Origin: a virus
Taxonomy: Monodnaviria; Loebvirae; Hofneiviricota; Faserviricetes; Tubulavirales
Direction: 5' to 3' (one strand)
IMG/VR virus record: IMGVR_UViG_2513020041_000001
Location: 1 to 7,781 of that record
Length of the DNA: 7,781 nt
Position 1 is the first letter of the stretch. Each line of letters starts with the position of its first letter. Positions 1 to 7,781 of this stretch are shown here, piece after piece. The notes beneath the pieces are model-generated. The model saw only the letters and a list, made by a program, of their open reading frames with translations, was not told where the DNA came from and did no database searches. The position numbers and the translations under genes were made by a program.

Positions 1-1269
1 ATGACTCCAACCAGTTCCGATCTGGTCAGAAATGCCGCTGAGGGCTCAGGCGGCGCAGCCGCCCTAGGTAGTATTGCGAAATGTTCTTCCCCCCCCCCTC
101 CGAAGGCAATGAGGGCCCAAAGATACCAAGCTCTTTCTCAGGCTCGGATCTGGTTAAAACCCTTGGCTGTCAAGGATCCCACCAAGCCTTACGGGTGGAA
201 ATTGCACCGCACGCAAGACTGCCGCTATAAGCGGATCGGCATCGGCGTCACCGTGCATAAAGACATCAAGCATCAGACCGCTTTTTACGGCGATGTAGCC
301 ACCTGTGGCTCCGTGTGGGCTTGTACCGTGTGCTCGGCAAAAATTCAGACTCGTCGACGTCCAGAGGTACAGCAGCTGGTCGATTGGGCTTACGAGAACG
401 ACTATCAGGTCACCATGATTACGTTCACGTTCCCGCATCTGGCATTTGATCGCCTGAAGGAACTGCTCGATGGCCAGAAACGCGCCTTTGAGATCCTCCG
501 CGGCGGTAGCCCATGGGTGAAGTTCAAGCAGCGTCACGGCCTTATCGGCTTTGTGCGCTCTCTGGAGGTCACTCACGGCGATAACGGCTGGCATCCTCAC
601 ACCCATGAGCTTTGGATCACCAAGGGGCTCACAGCCACGAATATGGCCACTTTCGAGAGCGGTATCCGCAAGCGGTGGCGGACTTCCTGCATCCAAGCTG
701 GTTTGCTCGATGAAACCTCGAAGGCGCAACTGTTCGCGTTCGATCTGCACTCGGTCGATTTTCAGTTTCAGGTGTCCACCTCTGACTACCTCGTCAAGAT
801 GGATAACGCGCGCAAATGGGGTGTCGATGCTGAGATGACGGCTCAAGCGTCAAAGGTTGGTGGTGATCGCGTCACGAAGACCATTCACCCCCATGAATTC
901 CTGATGCGTCGCGCACCTGGTGATGATGCCCGCTACCGCGAATACGTAACGGGCATGCATGGGAAAAGCCAGCTGTTCTGGTCTCAGCGCCTAAAAGACG
1001 CCTGCGGCGTAGAGCATGTGACTGACGAAGAGATTGCCAAGGAACAAACCGAAAAAGCGGATCTGCTAGCTCACCTGACCGACAGTCAATGGCGTGTCGT
1101 TCGTGGAAACGATGCCCTTGCTGAAGTGCTCGATGCTGCCGAGCTTGGTGGCTGGCCTGCTATCCGCTCCCTGCTGAAATCGCTTGGCTGCGAGATTCTC
1201 GAGACGGATTGTCATGATCCATTTTTCGAGGTCAATCGTGTTCTTTTCGCTCCAGACGAGCAGGTCTAG
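1..1269 (+). CDS. Rolling-circle replication initiator (HUH endonuclease, gII/RstA-like Rep), 422 aa
   Basis: Long ORF with the three HUH motifs in canonical order: motif 1 MITFTFP (nt ~415-435), motif 2 GWHPHTHELWI (nt ~589-621), motif 3 SDYLVKM with catalytic Tyr and Lys three residues on (nt ~784-801). It is the first gene of the unit, upstream of the ssb and coat genes as in filamentous phages. The N-terminal 36 aa are low-complexity (Ser/Gly/Ala/Pro) and include the C10 tract; the true start could be the internal Met at nt 109. Confidence 0.8.
   Translation: MTPTSSDLVRNAAEGSGGAAALGSIAKCSSPPPPKAMRAQRYQALSQARIWLKPLAVKDPTKPYGWKLHRTQDCRYKRIGIGVTVHKDIKHQTAFYGDVATCGSVWACTVCSAKIQTRRRPEVQQLVDWAYENDYQVTMITFTFPHLAFDRLKELLDGQKRAFEILRGGSPWVKFKQRHGLIGFVRSLEVTHGDNGWHPHTHELWITKGLTATNMATFESGIRKRWRTSCIQAGLLDETSKAQLFAFDLHSVDFQFQVSTSDYLVKMDNARKWGVDAEMTAQASKVGGDRVTKTIHPHEFLMRRAPGDDARYREYVTGMHGKSQLFWSQRLKDACGVEHVTDEEIAKEQTEKADLLAHLTDSQWRVVRGNDALAEVLDAAELGGWPAIRSLLKSLGCEILETDCHDPFFEVNRVLFAPDEQV
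1..1269. repeat. Direct repeat copy 1 (identical to 6513-7781): terminal redundancy of a 6512-bp unit
   Basis: Sequence 1-1269 matches 6513-7781 base for base on inspection, and the ORF track gives identical 422-aa translations and identical embedded ORFs for both copies. Confidence 0.95.
89..98 (+). repeat. C10 homopolymer tract in the 5' end of rep (encodes SSPPPP); second copy at 6601-6610
   Basis: Ten consecutive C residues counted at 89-98 and again at 6601-6610. Confidence 0.9.
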
Positions 1270-1426
1270 CAGCAGTTCTTTCGAGGACTTCGTCATATCG
1301 TTTGCTCCTTTCCAGCAGGTATTCCAATGCCTGCGTATGCGTGCAGTCCATCTCAACCTCAAGCATTTTGAGTTGAGTCCAGACTTCCTTTGAAACCGAG
1401 ATGTTTTTAAGCCGATCAGTGGCCAT
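1232..1426 (-). CDS. Ribbon-helix-helix (CopG/Arc-like) transcriptional regulator, 64 aa
   Basis: Minus-strand ORF MATDRLKNISVSKEVWTQLKMLEVEMDCTHTQALEYLLERSKRYDEVLERTAARPARLERKEHD. It has the RHH pattern of a short N-terminal beta-strand with alternating hydrophobics (RLKNISVS) followed by two helices (WTQLKMLEVEM, THTQALEYLLER), closely resembling CopG-type repressors. ATG is the rc of 1424-1426, with GGAG about 10 nt upstream on the minus strand. It is convergent with rep (38-bp 3' overlap) and divergent from the ssb gene. Confidence 0.55.
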   Translation of the reverse strand: MATDRLKNISVSKEVWTQLKMLEVEMDCTHTQALEYLLERSKRYDEVLERTAARPARLERKEHD

Positions 1427-1465
1427 GGGCCATTATCTCCATTTTTGTCCGATGAGTGGTGCGCA

Positions 1466-1571
1466 ACCCGACCAACGATCCGTAAAGGTCGGGTATTGAC
1501 CGGGTGTGTATTCGTGTTATCGTGTTTTCGTGTTGACGAACCATTCCCTTACACGATCCCGCGAAAACACG
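1466..1571. promoter_or_regulatory. Divergent regulatory region between the minus-strand RHH gene and ssb: hairpin, CGTGTT repeats, 10-bp inverted repeat
   Basis: 8-bp stem acccgacc (1466-1473) / ggtcgggt (1487-1494). Three CGTGTT direct repeats at 8-bp period (1513-1518, 1521-1526, 1529-1534). Perfect 10-bp inverted repeat cgtgttttcg (1521-1530) / cgaaaacacg (1562-1571) bracketing -35-like ttgacg (1533-1538), ending just before the ssb RBS aaagga (1575-1580). Confidence 0.4.
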
Positions 1572-1588
1572 CGAAAGGATACAACTCC

Positions 1589-1861
1589 ATGTCAGAAAAT
1601 ATCGTCGCAACCATTGAATTTACCGGCCTGAACAAGACCGGCACTTCCATGAAGTCCGGCACACCTAAGCCATGGTGGCGGCTTGGCGCGTACGTGAAAG
1701 TCCCCGGCCTGCTCCATCCGCAAGCTATCGAATTTTTCACCTCGGAAGTGACTCAGGTTCAGCCTGCAGGCAAGTACGAGGCTCCCTGCATCACTCGAAT
1801 TCAGGACGGAAAAATCACTGTTGAGCCTGATCTTTCTCAGCTCAAAGCGGTTCGCGCCTGA
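1589..1861 (+). CDS. ssDNA-binding protein (gV-like), 90 aa
   Basis: ATG at 1589 preceded by RBS aaagga (1575-1580). Small (90 aa) basic/aromatic-containing protein placed between rep and the major coat gene, the canonical gV position. The ORF-track extension back to 1445 lacks an RBS and overlaps the regulatory repeats. Confidence 0.6.
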   Translation: MSENIVATIEFTGLNKTGTSMKSGTPKPWWRLGAYVKVPGLLHPQAIEFFTSEVTQVQPAGKYEAPCITRIQDGKITVEPDLSQLKAVRA

Positions 1862-1965
1862 TGCCAGCGCTTGCTGATATGCCCGAGCTGGTATCAGCGA
1901 TCGTGCTTCTGTGGGCCACAGCTTGGTGCCTTAAACAAATACTTAATGCCATCAAAAAATTGTGA
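1861..1965 (+). CDS. Small hydrophobic protein, 34 aa (pVII/pIX-like minor coat candidate)
   Basis: ATG at 1861 overlaps the ssb stop (tgATG). Encodes MPALADMPELVSAIVLLWATAWCLKQILNAIKKL with a single hydrophobic helix, and ends 8 nt before the major coat start. Size and position match pVII/pIX of Ff-type phages. No own SD, so translational coupling would be required. Confidence 0.35.
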   Translation: MPALADMPELVSAIVLLWATAWCLKQILNAIKKL

Positions 1966-1972
1966 GGATCAC

Positions 1973-2230
1973 ATGCAAAAAGCTCTGTTTGTTCGCGCTG
2001 GAAATACTTGGTTCCGTCGCTCTGCAACTGTTGCCACTGGTGCGGCAATCATGATCGCTTCCGGTCTCGCTTCTGCTGCTGGTGAGACTCCTGAAGGCGG
2101 TGTCGACTCGGCGGCTGTCGTCGATCTGATCAAGGCTGCCGGTGTGACTGTCGGTGTTGTAGGTGTTGCTTGTATGGGTGTCTACCTGGCGCTGAAAGGC
2201 TTCCAGTGGGCTCGCTCCGCGATCAAGTAA
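1973..2230 (+). CDS. Major coat protein precursor (pVIII-like), 85 aa
   Basis: ATG at 1973 with RBS gagga (1964-1968). N-terminal signal-like segment ending ...ASGLASA, then a mature part with acidic N-terminus (ETPEGGVDSAAVVD), hydrophobic core (AAGVTVGVVGVACMGVYLAL) and basic C-terminus (KGFQWARSAIK), which is the defining pVIII architecture. Followed immediately by a strong intrinsic terminator. Confidence 0.8.
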   Translation: MQKALFVRAGNTWFRRSATVATGAAIMIASGLASAAGETPEGGVDSAAVVDLIKAAGVTVGVVGVACMGVYLALKGFQWARSAIK

Positions 2231-2241
2231 AGGGCGTACTC

Positions 2242-2276
2242 GCTCACTAGGGGGCTCAGTGAGCTCCCTTTTTTTT
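2242..2276 (+). terminator. Rho-independent terminator after the major coat gene
   Basis: Stem gctcact (2242-2248) / agtgagc (2258-2264) with a 9-nt GC-rich loop, followed by tccc and a T8 run (2269-2276). Confidence 0.7.
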
Positions 2277-2310
2277 GAGAATTTCCTATGGAAACTACGC
2301 AGGCGATCTT

Positions 2311-3459
2311 ATGGAACATAGAGCCATCCTTGGTTTACTTGTTGGCGGTTTGTGGTGCGTTCTGGATTCTTTTTCGCAGCTAGCTTCTGCGGCAGTTGAA
2401 ATTAACGTTGTACCTTTAGCAAATGGTACCTATGGCAAAGTTGTTGGCATTACAAATATTTCGCCATCAGGAAGCGCTACCGCCGTTGTTCAAGCTAAAG
2501 ATAAATTCGGTAATCTGGTTAATCGCTCTAGGACGCTTACCGCTAATCCGGCCAAATATGGCGCTTGGGCGCGTACTGCTATGCGCAGGATTCCCGCCGT
2601 TCAAATTGCCTTAGCTGCTGCTGCTGTTGCTGCTGGTTATTTGGTTACTCAAACTACTGATGAGTTTGGACAGGTAGGTTACGATATTTATAAACCCGGC
2701 TCTTCTTTGCCCGGGCTTGATGTTGAATGTCCTACTAACTCTGTATCTGTGCCTAATCCATCTGGTGTTGGCAACGTTCAGGCTTTTATCCCTACACCTT
2801 GCTATAACACTCGTTATTCAAACTACAGAGAATATTGGACTACTGAGCCATCTGCCGAACTGCAAGTGTGGGCTGGCTCAAATAGCCCTAATGTAGTCAC
2901 TCGTTGGCAATCTACATCTGTATCAATTCCACCCACACAGAAGCCTACGTATATTTATAAGCGCGGCATTAGCGCATCAAATCCTGAGAATAAACCTACT
3001 GTTCAGCGTGTTCCTGCTACAGATAGTGATTTAACTACTTGGGGTTTTCAGTCCCCTGACTCTGTTCAAGAAGCACCTGGGAAATTTCCAGATGTTTGGA
3101 ATCCCCTCCCGTGGGAAGAAACCGCTTCTGATGATGAGGTTGTTAACCCTCCGACTCAGCCCGGAGAAAGCACAGAAGATCCTGATTACGACCCCTGCGA
3201 AGGAGATTGTGCTGATTCTTCCGACCTCGATCATTCGGTTTTAGACCTCTCTTCATATCTCAAATGGGGGGAGGGCTGGATGCCTAGGCAGTGTCCCGCA
3301 CCGGTGCTTATTTACCAGTTCAACAACACGCCGGATGGGCAAGGTTGGTTCGATTTCTCTTACATATGCAGCGTTATGACTGATTTTGTATCCCCGTTCA
3401 TGCGAATTGCTGGCTTGTTCTTTTTCGTCCGCATTGTTGTAGGAGGTATGCGTGAATAG
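2311..3459 (+). CDS. Minor coat / adsorption protein (pIII-like), about 382 aa
   Basis: First gene after the coat terminator. N-terminal signal-like hydrophobic segment (MEHRAILGLLVGGLWCVLDSFSQLASA), an acidic Pro/Asp/Glu-rich linker (EETASDDEVVNPPTQPGESTEDPDYDP), Cys pairs and a C-terminal hydrophobic anchor (FMRIAGLFFFVRIVVGG). The ORF-track start at 2275 is a TTG inside the terminator T-run; ATG 2311 is preferred, but the start is uncertain. Confidence 0.6.
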   Translation: MEHRAILGLLVGGLWCVLDSFSQLASAAVEINVVPLANGTYGKVVGITNISPSGSATAVVQAKDKFGNLVNRSRTLTANPAKYGAWARTAMRRIPAVQIALAAAAVAAGYLVTQTTDEFGQVGYDIYKPGSSLPGLDVECPTNSVSVPNPSGVGNVQAFIPTPCYNTRYSNYREYWTTEPSAELQVWAGSNSPNVVTRWQSTSVSIPPTQKPTYIYKRGISASNPENKPTVQRVPATDSDLTTWGFQSPDSVQEAPGKFPDVWNPLPWEETASDDEVVNPPTQPGESTEDPDYDPCEGDCADSSDLDHSVLDLSSYLKWGEGWMPRQCPAPVLIYQFNNTPDGQGWFDFSYICSVMTDFVSPFMRIAGLFFFVRIVVGGMRE

Positions 3460-3739
3460 CTTGCTTAAGATTTTTGGCGTTGAATCAATCCGACACCTGG
3501 TCATCAAGACAATTTCCAGTCTCGGTATTGGGGTGATGAGCTATCAGGGACTTAATATTTTGCTTGGTATGATCACTGATCAAGTCATGCAAAACTTTAA
3601 CTCTTTGCCTGTGTCTGTTCTTTCCATCATGGGACTTGGCGGTCTCGATCACTTTATCAATATTGTTCTTTCAGCTTATTCGGCCCGCTTTGCCATGGCA
3701 TCCATTAAGAAATTTAGAATGATGGGCGCTGCTACATGA
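3452..3739 (+). CDS. Minor coat / membrane protein (pVI-like), 95 aa
   Basis: GTG start at 3452 with strong RBS aggagg (3441-3446), overlapping the pIII stop. The product is highly hydrophobic with multiple predicted TM segments; size and position (between pIII and pI) match gVI. Confidence 0.55.
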   Translation: MNSLLKIFGVESIRHLVIKTISSLGIGVMSYQGLNILLGMITDQVMQNFNSLPVSVLSIMGLGGLDHFINIVLSAYSARFAMASIKKFRMMGAAT

Positions 3740-4638
3740 TTCATTTAATTACCGGCGCACCTGGAACGGGAAAATCTCTGCTTGCTGTAGAGATTATTTT
3801 GGATAATTCATTATCTGAAAATCCGCGGCCTATTTTTTCCAACATCAACGGTTTGGACTTTGAGAAGCTGCGCTGCTTTCCTCTTGATAATCCTGAGGAG
3901 TGGCATACCTATCCAGTTGGTTCGCTGCTGGTAATTGATGAATGCCAACGCTATTTCCCACCTCGACCGAACGGGAGCAAGGTTCCGCAGAACATTGCAG
4001 AATTTGAAACCCATAGACACCATGGCCTTGACATCATTCTGTTAACTCAACATCCAACGTTTATTGATGCCAATATCAGAAAGCTTGTTGATCGTCATCA
4101 GCATGGGTTTCGTCCTTTTGGTAAAAAACGTCGGACTCTTCTGGAGTGGACAGGTTGCAATGACAATCCTGAGCCTGCGAAGAATGAATCTAATTCCTTG
4201 CAGAAGCGTAAGCCTTTTGATCCAAAGCTTTTTCAATATTACAAAAGTTCATCTCAGCATACTGATAAGGACCGTACGCCTTGGGCTAAAGTTCTTTTTC
4301 CTTTTGTTATGTTGGTTTTGGTTGTAGTTGCTTTCGGATTTGCATTTTATCGCTTAAGTCCGTCAAAGCCTGAATCGGTTAATTCTAAATTTGATAATTC
4401 AGTTAAAACGGTTGATAAACAGGCAGTCATTCCTACTGCTTCTTATGTAGGTTTTTTCCGTTCTGACAATGGCTTGCCTGCAACAGTGCTTGTTAAGGAC
4501 GGTTCAAATGGTTTCTACCGCGTTGATTATGATTCTTGGAATGTTGCCGGACCTCAGGTGAGCTTTTTTAAGGCAGATTCAACAACGCCCGTGCTTCGGG
4601 TTTCTTCATTAATTTTGGCAAAACTTATACAGGAGTAG
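3736..4638 (+). CDS. Zonula occludens toxin-like assembly ATPase (pI/Zot family), 300 aa
   Basis: ATG 3736 overlaps the upstream stop (ATGA). N-terminal Walker A GAPGTGKS, Walker B-like LLVIDECQ, an internal TM helix (VLFPFVMLVLVVVAFGFAFY) and a C-terminal periplasmic domain, which is the Zot/pI architecture. Confidence 0.8.
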   Translation: MIHLITGAPGTGKSLLAVEIILDNSLSENPRPIFSNINGLDFEKLRCFPLDNPEEWHTYPVGSLLVIDECQRYFPPRPNGSKVPQNIAEFETHRHHGLDIILLTQHPTFIDANIRKLVDRHQHGFRPFGKKRRTLLEWTGCNDNPEPAKNESNSLQKRKPFDPKLFQYYKSSSQHTDKDRTPWAKVLFPFVMLVLVVVAFGFAFYRLSPSKPESVNSKFDNSVKTVDKQAVIPTASYVGFFRSDNGLPATVLVKDGSNGFYRVDYDSWNVAGPQVSFFKADSTTPVLRVSSLILAKLIQE

Positions 4639-4681
4639 ACGGGGGAGGCGGGCGCTTGCGCACGACGCGCACGTCTACTCC
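4632..4681. promoter_or_regulatory. GC-rich nested inverted repeat spanning the Zot stop codon, upstream of the secretin gene
   Basis: Perfect 10-bp inverted repeat ggagtagacg (4632-4641) / cgtctactcc (4672-4681) enclosing an inner hairpin tgcgc (4657-4661) / gcgca (4667-4671). No T-run follows on either strand, so it is not a canonical intrinsic terminator. Confidence 0.4.
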
Positions 4682-4696
4682 AACCTGCTGACATTT

Positions 4697-5932
4697 ATGA
4701 AAAAACTGATCGCATTCACGTTTTTGATACTGTCTGGATTAGCTCACGCTGAAAACCTGACGCTTTCCTATGATCAAGTGCCCGTCACTCAGCTCCTAGT
4801 CGAAACCTACCGTAATCGACTTGAGAAATCATATGTCATTGACCCCAGCGTTGTTTCCAACAACAGTCTTGTTTCTATTAATGTTCGCGATCTTCCAATT
4901 GAGAGATTGGAATCTACTGTTGATAGCATCCTTAAAACTGCTGGTATCAATAAGGTAGTTGGTTCCGATGGGCTCATTCTTTTCAGCGCTCGCTCATATG
5001 ATTATGCAAACTCTCTCCCTCCCGTTCCAGCTTCTGTTGCTTCTCCTGGTATGGCATCGCTAGGCGCTGATCTTCCACCGGATATCCCTCTTCAAAATGG
5101 GAGTATTCCGGATAACTTCACCATTTTTCTTGCTCATAATCGGCCAACTTCTTTTTTACAGCCAATTGCCAATAAATTGCTTGGTACCAATTACGAACCT
5201 TCCGACCAGGTGTTTTTGTCGGGGGATGCCAAGCAGGTTGAAAAAGTGCGGTTCATCCTGGAGCAGCTCGACACCGCTCCGAATGAAATCATGGCTCAGG
5301 CTGTTGTTCTCGAGTTCTCAACCCAGCGTGTGAAAGGGTCCAGTTTTGAGATGGCAATCTCTGCTTTGTCCGGCCACCTTAAAATCGGTGTTGATTCCTT
5401 GCTCCCTGCCGGTGGGAATTTCATCAAGTGGTCTTCCACGGATCTGACTGCCGTCCTTTCTGCCGTATCCGGTGATTCTCGTTTTCATGTTGTTTCGACT
5501 CCAACGCTGCGCGTTGTTAGTGGTGGTACTGGTCGCCTGTTGGTTGGTCAGGAAGTGCCTACCCTGTCGTCTTCGTCTCTCGATAATTCAGGCAATGCGG
5601 TGCAGTCGATTGAGTACCGATCCGCAGGTGTGATCATGGAGCTGAAGCCCACCATTCTCCGTAATCGTATTGACCTGGAGCTGAATCAACAGATTTCCGA
5701 TTTCGCTCAAAACAATCTTTCTGGCATCGATTCTCCGACGCTGACTAAGCGTGAGTTGACCACCAAAATTTCGGCCCAGCCGGGGGAGCTGATTGTGCTT
5801 GGCGGGCTCGATCAGACGAAAAAAACAGATCAGAGCCGAGGCCTGTCGTTCCTTCCGTCCTTCATGGGCGGTAGCTCTTCAACTGACGCAGATACCCAGA
5901 TCCTGCTGGTTTTGCAGGTAACGAAAATATAG
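4697..5932 (+). CDS. Secretin (pIV/GspD-like outer-membrane export channel), 411 aa
   Basis: N-terminal signal peptide MKKLIAFTFLILSGLAHA. The C-terminal half carries secretin-domain signatures (VVSTPTLRVVSGGTGRLLVGQEVP, EYRSAGVIMELKPTI, GELIVLGGLDQTKKTDQSRGLSFLPSFMG, TQILLVLQVTKI) matching the conserved pattern of phage pIV and T2SS GspD. Confidence 0.8.
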   Translation: MKKLIAFTFLILSGLAHAENLTLSYDQVPVTQLLVETYRNRLEKSYVIDPSVVSNNSLVSINVRDLPIERLESTVDSILKTAGINKVVGSDGLILFSARSYDYANSLPPVPASVASPGMASLGADLPPDIPLQNGSIPDNFTIFLAHNRPTSFLQPIANKLLGTNYEPSDQVFLSGDAKQVEKVRFILEQLDTAPNEIMAQAVVLEFSTQRVKGSSFEMAISALSGHLKIGVDSLLPAGGNFIKWSSTDLTAVLSAVSGDSRFHVVSTPTLRVVSGGTGRLLVGQEVPTLSSSSLDNSGNAVQSIEYRSAGVIMELKPTILRNRIDLELNQQISDFAQNNLSGIDSPTLTKRELTTKISAQPGELIVLGGLDQTKKTDQSRGLSFLPSFMGGSSSTDADTQILLVLQVTKI

Positions 5933-5933
5933 C

Positions 5934-5961
5934 TTTACACGGTAATTACCGGGTCTATACT
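5934..5961 (+). promoter_or_regulatory. Candidate sigma70 promoter with an embedded 12-bp perfect palindrome (operator)
   Basis: -35-like tttaca (5934-5939) and -10-like tatact (5956-5961) with a 16-bp spacer; the perfect palindrome cggtaattaccg (5940-5951) lies in the spacer. It is followed by RBS aaggagg (5974-5980) and ATG 5989. Confidence 0.45.
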
Positions 5962-5988
5962 GGAGCCATATCAAAGGAGGCCGCTACC

Positions 5989-6159
5989 ATGGCAAATCAA
6001 TCCGCATCATCCGAAAAAATGCTTAACGTGAAGGTTCCCGAGGATCTCAAGCAGTCTTTTACGCTGGCTGTTGGGGCTCAAGATCAGACCGTTTCCCATG
6101 TCATCCGCGACTTCATGCGCAAATATGTCGCCCAACATGGTCAGGGGAAGCTGCTGTGA
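5989..6159 (+). CDS. Ribbon-helix-helix DNA-binding protein, 56 aa (absent from the ORF track)
   Basis: ATG 5989 with near-consensus SD aaggagg 8 nt upstream, stop TGA 6157-6159. Translation MANQSASSEKMLNVKVPEDLKQSFTLAVGAQDQTVSHVIRDFMRKYVAQHGQGKLL shows a beta-strand (LNVKV), helix A (PEDLKQSFTLAVGA) and helix B (QTVSHVIRDFMRKYV), the RHH fold pattern. Confidence 0.6.
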   Translation: MANQSASSEKMLNVKVPEDLKQSFTLAVGAQDQTVSHVIRDFMRKYVAQHGQGKLL

Positions 6160-6323
6160 ATATACTTCCGGTCACCCCTGCTTCTGCCGTGGCAAGCGCT
6201 GTCACGTGCCCTTCGTTTTCCCTTGACCCGTCCGTGGTCGTCCTCGCCCTTTTTCTGCCCTTTGTCCTTGTAGGGGCTTACTACCTTTTCCGGCTCGCCA
6301 AGGCTGATCTTCGTGGATTGTAA
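6156..6323 (+). CDS. Small single-pass membrane protein, 55 aa (absent from the ORF track)
   Basis: GTG 6156 overlaps the RHH stop (GTGA), with SD-like gggaag (6145-6150) 5 nt upstream. Translation MNILPVTPASAVASAVTCPSFSLDPSVVVLALFLPFVLVGAYYLFRLAKADLRGL has one hydrophobic helix followed by a basic C-terminus. Stop TAA 6321-6323 is followed directly by a hairpin. Confidence 0.45.
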   Translation: MNILPVTPASAVASAVTCPSFSLDPSVVVLALFLPFVLVGAYYLFRLAKADLRGL

Positions 6324-6325
6324 AG

Positions 6326-6374
6326 CCGGTTCTAGACGCCTGAATGGCTTCATCTTTCAGGTGGCTAGAACCGG
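6326..6374. promoter_or_regulatory. Hairpin: 10-bp perfect inverted repeat with 29-nt loop at the start of the intergenic region
   Basis: ccggttctag (6326-6335) / ctagaaccgg (6365-6374). It begins 3 nt after the stop of the small membrane-protein ORF. Confidence 0.5.
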
Positions 6375-6382
6375 AATCGATC

Positions 6383-6423
6383 TTTCTGTAGACCAAATTT
6401 CGTAGACGTACTTTTTCGTAGAC
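6383..6423 (+). repeat. Three iteron-like direct repeats, TTTC(T)GTAGAC
   Basis: tttctgtagac (6383-6393), tttcgtagac (6398-6407), tttcgtagac (6414-6423), spaced about 14-16 bp apart in the same orientation, upstream of rep. Confidence 0.55.
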
Positions 6424-6447
6424 AAAAAAAAGGCCCCATGAGGGGCC
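6424..6447 (-). terminator. GC hairpin flanked by an A8 run (T8 on the minus strand): terminator-like on the minus strand, or an origin/packaging hairpin
   Basis: A8 (6424-6431), stem ggcccc (6432-6437) / ggggcc (6442-6447), loop atga. Read on the minus strand this is a 6-bp GC stem followed by T8, the canonical intrinsic-terminator shape. On the + strand no T-run follows. Confidence 0.4.
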
Positions 6448-6512
6448 CTTGACACTCGTGAAGCCCCTTTCCCGGCAAGGCGCGGAGCTTCACAACGCAG
6501 GGATATTCTAGC

Positions 6513-7781
6513 ATGACTCCAACCAGTTCCGATCTGGTCAGAAATGCCGCTGAGGGCTCAGGCGGCGCAGCCGCCCTAGGTAGTATTGCGAAATGTTCTT
6601 CCCCCCCCCCTCCGAAGGCAATGAGGGCCCAAAGATACCAAGCTCTTTCTCAGGCTCGGATCTGGTTAAAACCCTTGGCTGTCAAGGATCCCACCAAGCC
6701 TTACGGGTGGAAATTGCACCGCACGCAAGACTGCCGCTATAAGCGGATCGGCATCGGCGTCACCGTGCATAAAGACATCAAGCATCAGACCGCTTTTTAC
6801 GGCGATGTAGCCACCTGTGGCTCCGTGTGGGCTTGTACCGTGTGCTCGGCAAAAATTCAGACTCGTCGACGTCCAGAGGTACAGCAGCTGGTCGATTGGG
6901 CTTACGAGAACGACTATCAGGTCACCATGATTACGTTCACGTTCCCGCATCTGGCATTTGATCGCCTGAAGGAACTGCTCGATGGCCAGAAACGCGCCTT
7001 TGAGATCCTCCGCGGCGGTAGCCCATGGGTGAAGTTCAAGCAGCGTCACGGCCTTATCGGCTTTGTGCGCTCTCTGGAGGTCACTCACGGCGATAACGGC
7101 TGGCATCCTCACACCCATGAGCTTTGGATCACCAAGGGGCTCACAGCCACGAATATGGCCACTTTCGAGAGCGGTATCCGCAAGCGGTGGCGGACTTCCT
7201 GCATCCAAGCTGGTTTGCTCGATGAAACCTCGAAGGCGCAACTGTTCGCGTTCGATCTGCACTCGGTCGATTTTCAGTTTCAGGTGTCCACCTCTGACTA
7301 CCTCGTCAAGATGGATAACGCGCGCAAATGGGGTGTCGATGCTGAGATGACGGCTCAAGCGTCAAAGGTTGGTGGTGATCGCGTCACGAAGACCATTCAC
7401 CCCCATGAATTCCTGATGCGTCGCGCACCTGGTGATGATGCCCGCTACCGCGAATACGTAACGGGCATGCATGGGAAAAGCCAGCTGTTCTGGTCTCAGC
7501 GCCTAAAAGACGCCTGCGGCGTAGAGCATGTGACTGACGAAGAGATTGCCAAGGAACAAACCGAAAAAGCGGATCTGCTAGCTCACCTGACCGACAGTCA
7601 ATGGCGTGTCGTTCGTGGAAACGATGCCCTTGCTGAAGTGCTCGATGCTGCCGAGCTTGGTGGCTGGCCTGCTATCCGCTCCCTGCTGAAATCGCTTGGC
7701 TGCGAGATTCTCGAGACGGATTGTCATGATCCATTTTTCGAGGTCAATCGTGTTCTTTTCGCTCCAGACGAGCAGGTCTAG
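6513..7781 (+). CDS. Rolling-circle replication initiator (second, identical copy of 1-1269)
   Basis: Identical 422-aa translation to the ORF at 1-1269, with the same HUH motifs. ATG 6513 has no obvious SD upstream (gggatattctagc), which adds to the doubt about the true start (alternative Met at 6621). Confidence 0.8.
   Translation: MTPTSSDLVRNAAEGSGGAAALGSIAKCSSPPPPKAMRAQRYQALSQARIWLKPLAVKDPTKPYGWKLHRTQDCRYKRIGIGVTVHKDIKHQTAFYGDVATCGSVWACTVCSAKIQTRRRPEVQQLVDWAYENDYQVTMITFTFPHLAFDRLKELLDGQKRAFEILRGGSPWVKFKQRHGLIGFVRSLEVTHGDNGWHPHTHELWITKGLTATNMATFESGIRKRWRTSCIQAGLLDETSKAQLFAFDLHSVDFQFQVSTSDYLVKMDNARKWGVDAEMTAQASKVGGDRVTKTIHPHEFLMRRAPGDDARYREYVTGMHGKSQLFWSQRLKDACGVEHVTDEEIAKEQTEKADLLAHLTDSQWRVVRGNDALAEVLDAAELGGWPAIRSLLKSLGCEILETDCHDPFFEVNRVLFAPDEQV
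6513..7781. repeat. Direct repeat copy 2 (identical to 1-1269)
   Basis: Exact duplication of window positions 1-1269, extending to the window end. Confidence 0.95.

Follow-up and report, generated by a model that had tools for sequence, protein, structure and literature searches.

The stretch of DNA that was analysed (the window, 7,781 nt) is a complete circular filamentous phage genome of ~6.5 kb (6512 bp), with positions 1-1269 recurring at 6513-7781. Its products match the Pfam families Rep_1, ssDBP, Phage_Coat_B, DUF2523, Zot and Secretin, a gene set which, in a small circular genome, places the phage in the Inoviridae. On the plus strand, rep (1-1269), encoding a Rep_1-family initiator, is followed by ssb (1589-1861), encoding a gV-like protein of 90 residues (Pfam PF17878 ssDBP, E=5.5e-7; PHROG 2866), and by the genes for the major coat protein (1985-2230), an adsorption-like protein (2275-3459), a DUF2523 protein (3452-3739), a Zot-like ATPase (3736-4638), a secretin (4697-5932) and RHH-2, an omega-like protein (5989-6159), which is the second of two proteins linked to the ribbon-helix-helix (RHH) fold. 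The first, RHH-1, is a putative RHH repressor of 64 residues, encoded by an ORF on the minus strand (1232-1426) that is divergent from ssb and overlaps the 3' end of rep in antisense with its own 3' end (1232-1269). Between the RHH-1 gene and ssb lies an intergenic region of 162 nt (1427-1588), the ssb ATG being at 1589. A terminator is present at 2249-2269, at the end of the run of ssb and coat genes, and another, on the minus strand, at 6450-6429.

The sole related phage record is that of Pseudomonas phage PMBT54, to which only a stretch of 362 nt, made up of the end of the intergenic region and ssb, reaches 80% identity. In the report on PMBT54 no promoter or operator is mentioned, the RHH-1 homologue (ORF2) is given as a protein of unknown function with a guessed role in replication, and PMBT54-like phages are said to be episomal (PMC10534721). 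A protein search with RHH-1 returned 28 homologues (66-94% identity); 12 contig look-ups and one metagenome scan yielded 22 loci, most of them on contigs of 6.4-7.6 kb, which together with PMBT54 provide 17 distinct intergenic sequences, 14 of them taken into the alignment A2. The comparison of DNA boxes with the RHH-1 strand described below was made for RHH-1 lineages other than P0009, P0010, P0014, P0017, P0023, P0026 and P0027. Queries of IMG/VR with ssb, with the RHH-1 alignment and with a DNA pattern of the right half of the region returned no relatives, a peptide scan of genome contigs with RHH-1 gave no match, and the pattern TCGTGTTNTCGTGTTNTCGTGTT found only unrelated simple repeats in genome and viral contigs.

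The predicted promoter of the ssb operon, P_ssb, consists of a -35 element, TTGACC (1496-1501), and an extended -10 element (1515-1523) made up of TG (1515-1516), T and TATCGT (1518-1523). The arrangement TTGACC-16-TATCGT, with the TG at -15/-14, matches the sigma-70 type at 9 of 12 positions and is the top-scoring PWM site in each of the 15 lineages, with scores of 10.5-12.8 compared with at most 7.5 elsewhere in the intergenic region. In the alignment the -35 element reads TTGAC(C) and the -10 element has TGn in front of it; the -10 element is held in place in all lineages as TATCGT, TATGGT or TAACAT, and the distance from the promoter to the ssb ATG is 63-66 nt, or 74 nt in two of the 15 lineages; the prediction thus has the hexamers, a spacing within 16-18 bp and the kept position of a sigma-70 promoter. 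Transcription would start near 1529-1532. The first-pass annotation had noted a -35-like element further downstream, TTGACG (1533-1538); the hexamer is there, but it is followed by no acceptable -10 element and reads TTGCAG or TTGCTG in L126 and L133, and it is probably not a promoter element. A minus-strand scan for a promoter of the RHH-1 gene gave no site with a good score or a consistent position.

The promoter shares its DNA with a tandem array of four boxes on the plus strand (1505-1532), the putative RHH-1 operator O1, which has a strict 8-bp period: TGTG (1505-1508), spacer TATT, CGTG (1513-1516), spacer TTAT, CGTG (1521-1524), spacer TTTT, CGTG (1529-1532). Across the alignment the boxes read CGTG (the first being TGTG in some lineages) and the spacers TTTT, TTAT and TTTT. 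With respect to the predicted promoter, box 1 abuts the -35 element, box 2 carries the TG of the extended -10, box 3 overlaps the -10 and box 4 lies on the predicted start. The mean column identity of the array is 0.95 (14 lineages, 28 columns; 0.98 without L128/129), and 20 of its 28 columns are invariant in the 14 aligned lineages; this is higher than for ssb codons (0.85), the -35 element (0.88) or flanking non-coding DNA (0.61-0.77). None of the 17 lineages has an indel in the array, which is also the sole perfectly phased CGTG-N4-CGTG site in the genome.

Downstream of the array there is a variable stretch of 22-32 nt, opening with TTGACG in most lineages, and then an inverted unit, ACACGAT (1551-1557), which is the reverse complement of ATCGTGT (1519-1525), has its box, CACG, at 1552-1555, and is 95% paired or matching when counted by alignment cells. 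With at least three short core motifs at a fixed period, present in direct and inverted orientation and overlapping a predicted promoter, the region has the make-up of a tandem-box operator. Next comes a CGCG-N6-CGCG element (1560-1573), in which both CGCG blocks are invariant and the spacer varies in sequence and in length, from 5 to 6 nt (AAAACA, AAAACC, AGATC, AGAATC, AGACC, TGATCC). The Shine-Dalgarno sequence of ssb, AAGGA (1575-1579), follows within a conserved AAAGGATA, which is CAAGGATA in L126, L133 and L134.

Within this region the first-pass annotation had singled out a 10-bp inverted repeat, proposing it either as an operator for one of the RHH proteins or as an mRNA stem which occludes or positions the ribosome-binding site of ssb. 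Its description of the DNA is accurate: CGTGTTTTCG (1521-1530) and CGAAAACACG (1562-1571) are perfect reverse complements (10/10) with a gap of 31 nt that contains TTGACG, the right arm stops 4 nt short of AGGA (1576-1579), and the left arm lies within a triple direct repeat of CGTGTT (1513, 1521 and 1529, 8 bp apart). The left arm, however, equals box 3, its spacer and the first two bases of box 4, and the right arm reads CGTG-TTTT-CG on the minus strand, i.e. it is an inverted copy of the array unit. The right arm is in 8-bp phase with 1552-1555 and 1560-1563, such that the right side of the region in the window reads CGTG-TTTT-CGCG-GGAT-CGTG on the minus strand, again an inverted array unit that keeps to the 8-bp phase. 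The perfect repeat thus comes about incidentally, because a box, a T4 spacer and CG are present in both orientations.

When the 162-nt intergenic region was put through 20,000 dinucleotide shuffles, 198 of them (~1%) contained a perfect 10-bp inverted repeat with a gap of at most 50 nt; for the entire genome of 6512 nt, 256 shuffles out of 1000 (26%) contained at least one, and the genome itself has three against 0.38 expected. The repeat is thus modestly above chance. Apart from the window, only L126/127 and L133/134 have perfect complementarity; the arms match at 9/10 positions in L143, L142, L145 and L146, whereas in the PMBT54, L130 and L135 types the complementarity has been lost by substitutions and an indel. 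L145 has an identical RHH-1 and 90% identical DNA, yet carries CGAAAACCCG, with AAAACC in the middle of the CGCG element, the interior of which is its most variable part and is where the right arm falls. The central pair of the 10-bp helix is broken in 10 of the 14 aligned relatives, no compensatory or double change occurs at any of its pairs, and shuffled controls do as well (500/500). Judged by these relatives, the exact 10-bp complementarity is a lineage-specific property and not itself a selected feature.

The assignment of RHH-1 to the RHH fold is tentative, the evidence being weak though consistent. Its Pfam match is to MatP_C, an RHH domain, with E=0.0056 and 17.4 bits, below the cut-off of 24; a PHROG search gave no match, and a profile search of the PDB with the RHH-1 family alignment gave nothing at E<=1. 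The AF2 monomer model (pLDDT 72) has helices at residues 13-26 and 30-53 and an N-terminal segment of low confidence, as is expected for a strand that is formed only in the dimer. The best Foldseek matches in the PDB are the MatP RHH domain and CopG (rmsd 0.9-1.7 A over 33-40 residues), with weak statistics (E 0.9-3, probability 0.6-0.9).

RHH-1 and the boxes vary together. The strand KNISVSK is invariant in 26 of the 28 RHH-1 homologues, the exceptions being P0004 (KNLGVSV) and P0020 (KNVTVSV), and the strand changes S10G, S10T, I9L/V and K13V are restricted to these two lineages, in both of which the boxes are altered. At the P0004 loci, L128/129, boxes 3 and 4 have changed from CGTG to GGTG, as at no other fetched locus, and C:G has become G:C at the corresponding base of the inverted unit, turning ACACGAT into ACACCAT. 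At the P0020 locus, L146, the boxes read CATG/CGTG/CATG/CGTG, with the inverted unit unchanged. A concerted C-to-G change in two direct boxes is not explicable by base pairing between boxes, but fits a shared reader with shifted specificity. Position 10, which is S, G or T in the three types of strand, is the central hydrophilic residue of the strand and, by analogy with the structures of Arc, MetJ and CopG, we infer that it contacts a base. The co-variation represents one or two evolutionary events, since P0004 and P0020, which share K13V and T17R, may be sister lineages. The CGCG-N5-6-CGCG element, which could be a small leader hairpin or a set of weak inverted boxes, is unchanged in L128/129 and L146, which makes it doubtful as a source of further RHH-1 boxes; read as an RNA hairpin, its sequence is invariant and so offers no covariation.

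From the anatomy of the region, its conservation, its match to a promoter and the co-variation of the boxes with the RHH-1 β-strand, we infer a transcription start, binding, stoichiometry and repression along the following lines. One RHH-1 dimer would bind per box, cooperatively, on the four CGTG boxes; the bound boxes would cover the promoter spacer, the extended -10 element and the start, and RNA polymerase would be excluded from P_ssb, throttling expression of ssb and the downstream virion and coat genes up to the terminator at 2249-2269. The inverted unit ACACGAT (1551-1557), at approximately +22 to +42, probably extends or stabilises the complex, as probably does the second inverted CGTG of the window (1568-1571), which is in the same 8-bp phase. 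We judge it reasonably probable that the region is a tandem-box operator of the ParG/omega style which represses the ssb/coat operon, with RHH-1 as the likely repressor. Of the two proposals made for the 10-bp repeat, that of an operator for an RHH protein is hence the better supported, and indeed the best supported of the readings considered here, although the unit concerned appears to be the CGTG array (1505-1532) with the inverted unit (1551-1557) rather than the 10-bp repeat. The first-pass annotation also drew a link to the change-over from replication of the double strand to production of ssDNA, which is a matter of speculation.

The left and right halves of the region are complementary well beyond the boxes, and a pure operator model does not require such pairing. 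Boxes 1-3 (~1504-1525) could pair with 1551-1573 on the plus strand as an imperfect stem-loop of three segments, either in read-through mRNA from rep or in packaged or replicating viral ssDNA, the boxes then being secondary or dual-use; possible roles of such a hairpin are in processing or stability, in recognition by ssb or Rep, or as a minus-strand origin. The RNAalifold consensus has 16 pairs, one of them compensatory (stem columns 31-34/105-108, 37-42/95-100 and 45-50/87-92). In 14 of 15 lineages the fold of the whole segment has z = -2.1 to -6.4, and in 14 of 15 the fold is more stable on the plus than on the minus strand; folded as DNA, the window segment has z of -2.2 to -2.75. Read on the plus strand, almost every non-Watson-Crick position is a G.T pair; each sequence has 2-4 of these, and 11 of 14 sequences have no further mismatch. 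Five single transitions preserve wobble pairing. No terminator is predicted between rep and ssb, hence read-through is possible.

Several observations weigh against the hairpin as the principal feature. Transcription from P_ssb is predicted to start beyond its left half, which would thus be absent from the main ssb mRNA. Three pairs are broken without compensation in L132, and likewise in L146, where the fold is lost (z = -1.3). The hairpin offers box 4 no partner, yet this box is equally conserved and changed together with box 3 in L128/129. Moreover, low fold energies arise automatically from an inverted arrangement of repeated boxes, and stronger ssDNA hairpins are found elsewhere in the genome, at 6326-6374 (z = -6.8) and 4632-4681 (z = -5.4). 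Rfam 15 gave no match at E<=1 over positions 1-6600 on both strands. We consider the hairpin an unlikely explanation of the region, albeit one that accounts for pairing which the operator model leaves aside.

That the boxes are read by RHH-2 (5989-6159), or by a host factor, rather than by RHH-1 is distinctly improbable. RHH-2 has somewhat better matches to RHH families (RHH_9 with E=9e-4, plus RHH_1 and RHH_5), and its PMBT54 homologue, ORF13, has been likened by the authors of that work to the omega repressor, a binder of repeated heptads (PMC10534721). Yet the RHH-2 strand differs widely (MLNVKV, NVNFRV, SVFFKC, SVYLKC) among lineages with identical arrays, whereas that of RHH-1 does not vary among them and is altered precisely where the boxes are; the RHH-2 gene is also ~2 kb away, beside a promoter-like site of its own.

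Less probable still is that the ~70-nt imperfect palindrome (~1504-1573) as a whole serves two purposes, acting in double-stranded form as the RHH-1-controlled promoter and in viral ssDNA as a conserved G.T-tolerant hairpin that embeds the -10 element. Host RNA polymerase would recognise this hairpin as a minus-strand origin, or else ssb or Rep would recognise it. If true, such an element would physically couple virion-gene expression to the single- or double-stranded state of the genome. It is to this reading alone that the Ff phages are relevant. In Ff, gene V exerts translational control, and the minus-strand origin has hairpins on the plus strand that can mimic promoters; the likeness lies in the balance between ssDNA and the replicative form and in the plus-strand hairpins. 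In the phage of the window, by contrast, the -35 element would be unpaired in the hairpin form, and binding of this leader by ssb is hypothetical.

Two further explanations are highly improbable. One takes the 8-bp repeats as iterons of a double-strand origin, bound by the Rep_1 initiator, with the inverted repeat presenting the nick site. Rolling-circle replicons do have bind and nic loci of a similar build, with direct repeats next to an inverted repeat, and the element is directly downstream of rep. However, the array does not track Rep identity: in L142, whose Rep shares just 26-30% identity with the others, the array and the RHH-1 strand are the same, and in L128, whose Rep is 90% identical to that of the window, the boxes are altered. 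By these sequence comparisons the boxes follow neither Rep nor RHH-2. The loop, in which the nick would be made, is among the least conserved parts (identity 0.77), and the array coincides precisely with the promoter; the matrix of Rep identities and the loop identity of 0.77 led us to reject a rolling-circle origin here. The other, the pairing of the 10-nt arms in ssb mRNA to occlude or position the ribosome-binding site, has the slenderest prospects of all: the complementarity of the arms is perfect, 4 nt separate the right arm from AGGA and the DNA fold of 1515-1577 contains a stem using both arms, but their helix lacks covariation, with its central pair broken in 10 of 14 relatives and shuffles performing equally well, the left arm lies upstream of the start predicted near 1530 and would be untranscribed from P_ssb, and the minimum-energy RNA folds (z = -1.7 for 1515-1600 and -1.2 for 1530-1610) skip the arm register, and in none of them is the Shine-Dalgarno sequence paired with an arm.

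The tandem-box operator thus preferred may be compared with that of ParG. The ParG operator OF consists of tetramer boxes, both direct and inverted, with regular 4-bp AT-rich spacers and one RHH dimer per box (PMC3130281); ParG coats its site cooperatively, with specificity residing in the β-ribbon (PMC3130281, PMC3413123), and ribbon swaps retarget ParG-type proteins to other tetramer boxes (PMC3413123). Tetramer cores, 4-bp AT-rich spacers and an 8-bp period are common to the OF/parH sites of plasmid TP228 and the phage array, as are the mixture of direct and inverted boxes and the location at a promoter. The differences are that the phage box is CGTG and the ParG box ACTC; that, unlike for ParG, the phage array has only four direct and one to three inverted boxes with a gap of ~22 bp between the groups; and that the ParG boxes lie downstream of the -10 element, whereas those of the phage extend across the promoter spacer, the -10 and +1. 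No sequence relation between RHH-1 and ParG is detectable, RHH-1 lacks a partner ATPase, and its setting is a phage regulatory region rather than plasmid partition.

More distant parallels are found in omega and MetJ. Omega (from pSM19035) and MetJ are RHH proteins that bind as dimers to short units arranged head to tail: for omega the unit is a heptad of 7 bp, direct or inverted, and for MetJ it is the 8-bp metbox. Both repress promoters through cooperative dimer-dimer contacts. Unlike the metbox, the 8-bp unit of the phage is no palindrome, omega has a period of 7 bp, and nothing points to a corepressor for the phage operator. The likeness to omega and MetJ is one at the level of design.

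Like the proposed RHH-1, Arc and Mnt of phage P22 and CopG of pMV158 are small RHH repressors of phages or plasmids with operators that overlap the core promoter, and the RHH-1 model has one of its best structural matches in CopG (rmsd ~0.9 A over 33-36 residues, with a weak E of ~1-3). Arc, Mnt and CopG bind as tetramers, each to a single pseudo-palindrome of 13-21 bp, whereas the proposed phage operator has four direct boxes in phase. In filamentous phages, RstR of CTXphi (with operators in ig-2) and Pf4r of Pf4 are small repressors encoded divergently from the phage operon that they control, with operators in a short intergenic region. The RHH-1 gene has the same arrangement, but RstR and Pf4r are helix-turn-helix proteins controlling replication genes (rstA) or the excisionase, whereas RHH-1 is putatively of the RHH type, its gene is downstream of rep and antisense to the 3' end of rep, and the promoter that it would control drives ssb and the coat genes.

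The feature is thus most likely an uncharacterised example of a well-known repressor-operator design, not yet described for the PMBT54-like group of phages; because the design is familiar, the advance is one of annotation and experimental design, not of a new principle. Under this proposal the short antisense ORF (ORF2) of PMBT54-like filamentous phages of Pseudomonas gains a testable role, that of repressing the ssb/coat operon. These are non-integrating and chronically shed phages of food-spoilage pseudomonads, in which this promoter and operator probably set the level of virion production. The natural variants, pairing S10 with CGTG, G10 with GGTG and T10 with CATG, constitute a specificity series for DNA recognition by the ribbon.

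Between the window and the related Pseudomonas phage PMBT54, the sole segment that reaches the megablast threshold of 80% identity is 1491-1852 of the window (1752-2111 in PMBT54, L001), and the putative operator together with ssb, the gene for the gV-like ssDNA-binding protein, is the most conserved DNA of these genomes. Just ahead of the Shine-Dalgarno sequence of ssb lies a CGCG-N5-6-CGCG element (1560-1573), the CGCG blocks of which are invariant, with a spacer that differs in both sequence and length. The element is unchanged in lineages in which boxes of the CGTG array, the putative operator for the ribbon-helix-helix protein RHH-1, are altered; it may act as a small hairpin in the leader or as a site for some other factor. 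On the other side, immediately upstream of the -35 of the predicted ssb-operon promoter, is a perfect 8-bp inverted repeat, ACCCGACC / GGTCGGGT (1466-1473 / 1487-1494). Other lineages also have small hairpins at this place, but different ones, and a possible role for such hairpins is as a barrier against read-through from rep, the replication initiator gene.

Because rep is present twice in the window in identical copies (1-1269 and 6513-7781), the unit length is 6512 bp; the window is a complete, circularly permuted genome. A related locus, L142 (ERR12320427 contig, 7625 bp), encodes a Rep of 562 residues (2737-4425) with only 26-30% identity to the other Reps and has the same RHH-1, box array and ssb module as other lineages. 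Such an arrangement is evidence of exchange of the replication gene as a module.

The RHH-1 gene, which lies on the opposite strand, shares 38 nt (1232-1269) with the 3' end of rep, and this convergent overlap is kept in relatives, which suggests transcriptional interference or a form of antisense regulation of rep. Three (T/C)GTAGAC direct repeats (6387, 6401 and 6417) are followed, within 6387-6454, by an A8 run, a GGCCCC-ATGA-GGGGCC hairpin and TTGACA (6449-6454). Read on the minus strand, the hairpin and the resulting T8 run (6450-6429) look like a strong intrinsic terminator; transcripts running leftward from RHH-1 could thus be antisense over the whole of rep and end at this site.

Among promoter-like sites in the genome the best is TTTACA-16-TATACT (5934-5961, 10 of 12 positions matching), located upstream of the gene for RHH-2, the omega-like ribbon-helix-helix protein, which suggests that RHH-2, a small membrane ORF (6156-6323) and rep constitute one operon. 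The genome's strongest hairpin (6326-6344 / 6356-6374; 19-nt arms, 89% complementary, DNA fold z = -6.8) belongs to the large non-coding region that precedes rep and is a candidate for a packaging signal or for the hairpin of an origin. The third perfect 10-bp inverted repeat in the genome (4632-4641 / 4672-4681; DNA fold z = -5.4) brackets a GC-rich stretch between the Zot-like and secretin genes.
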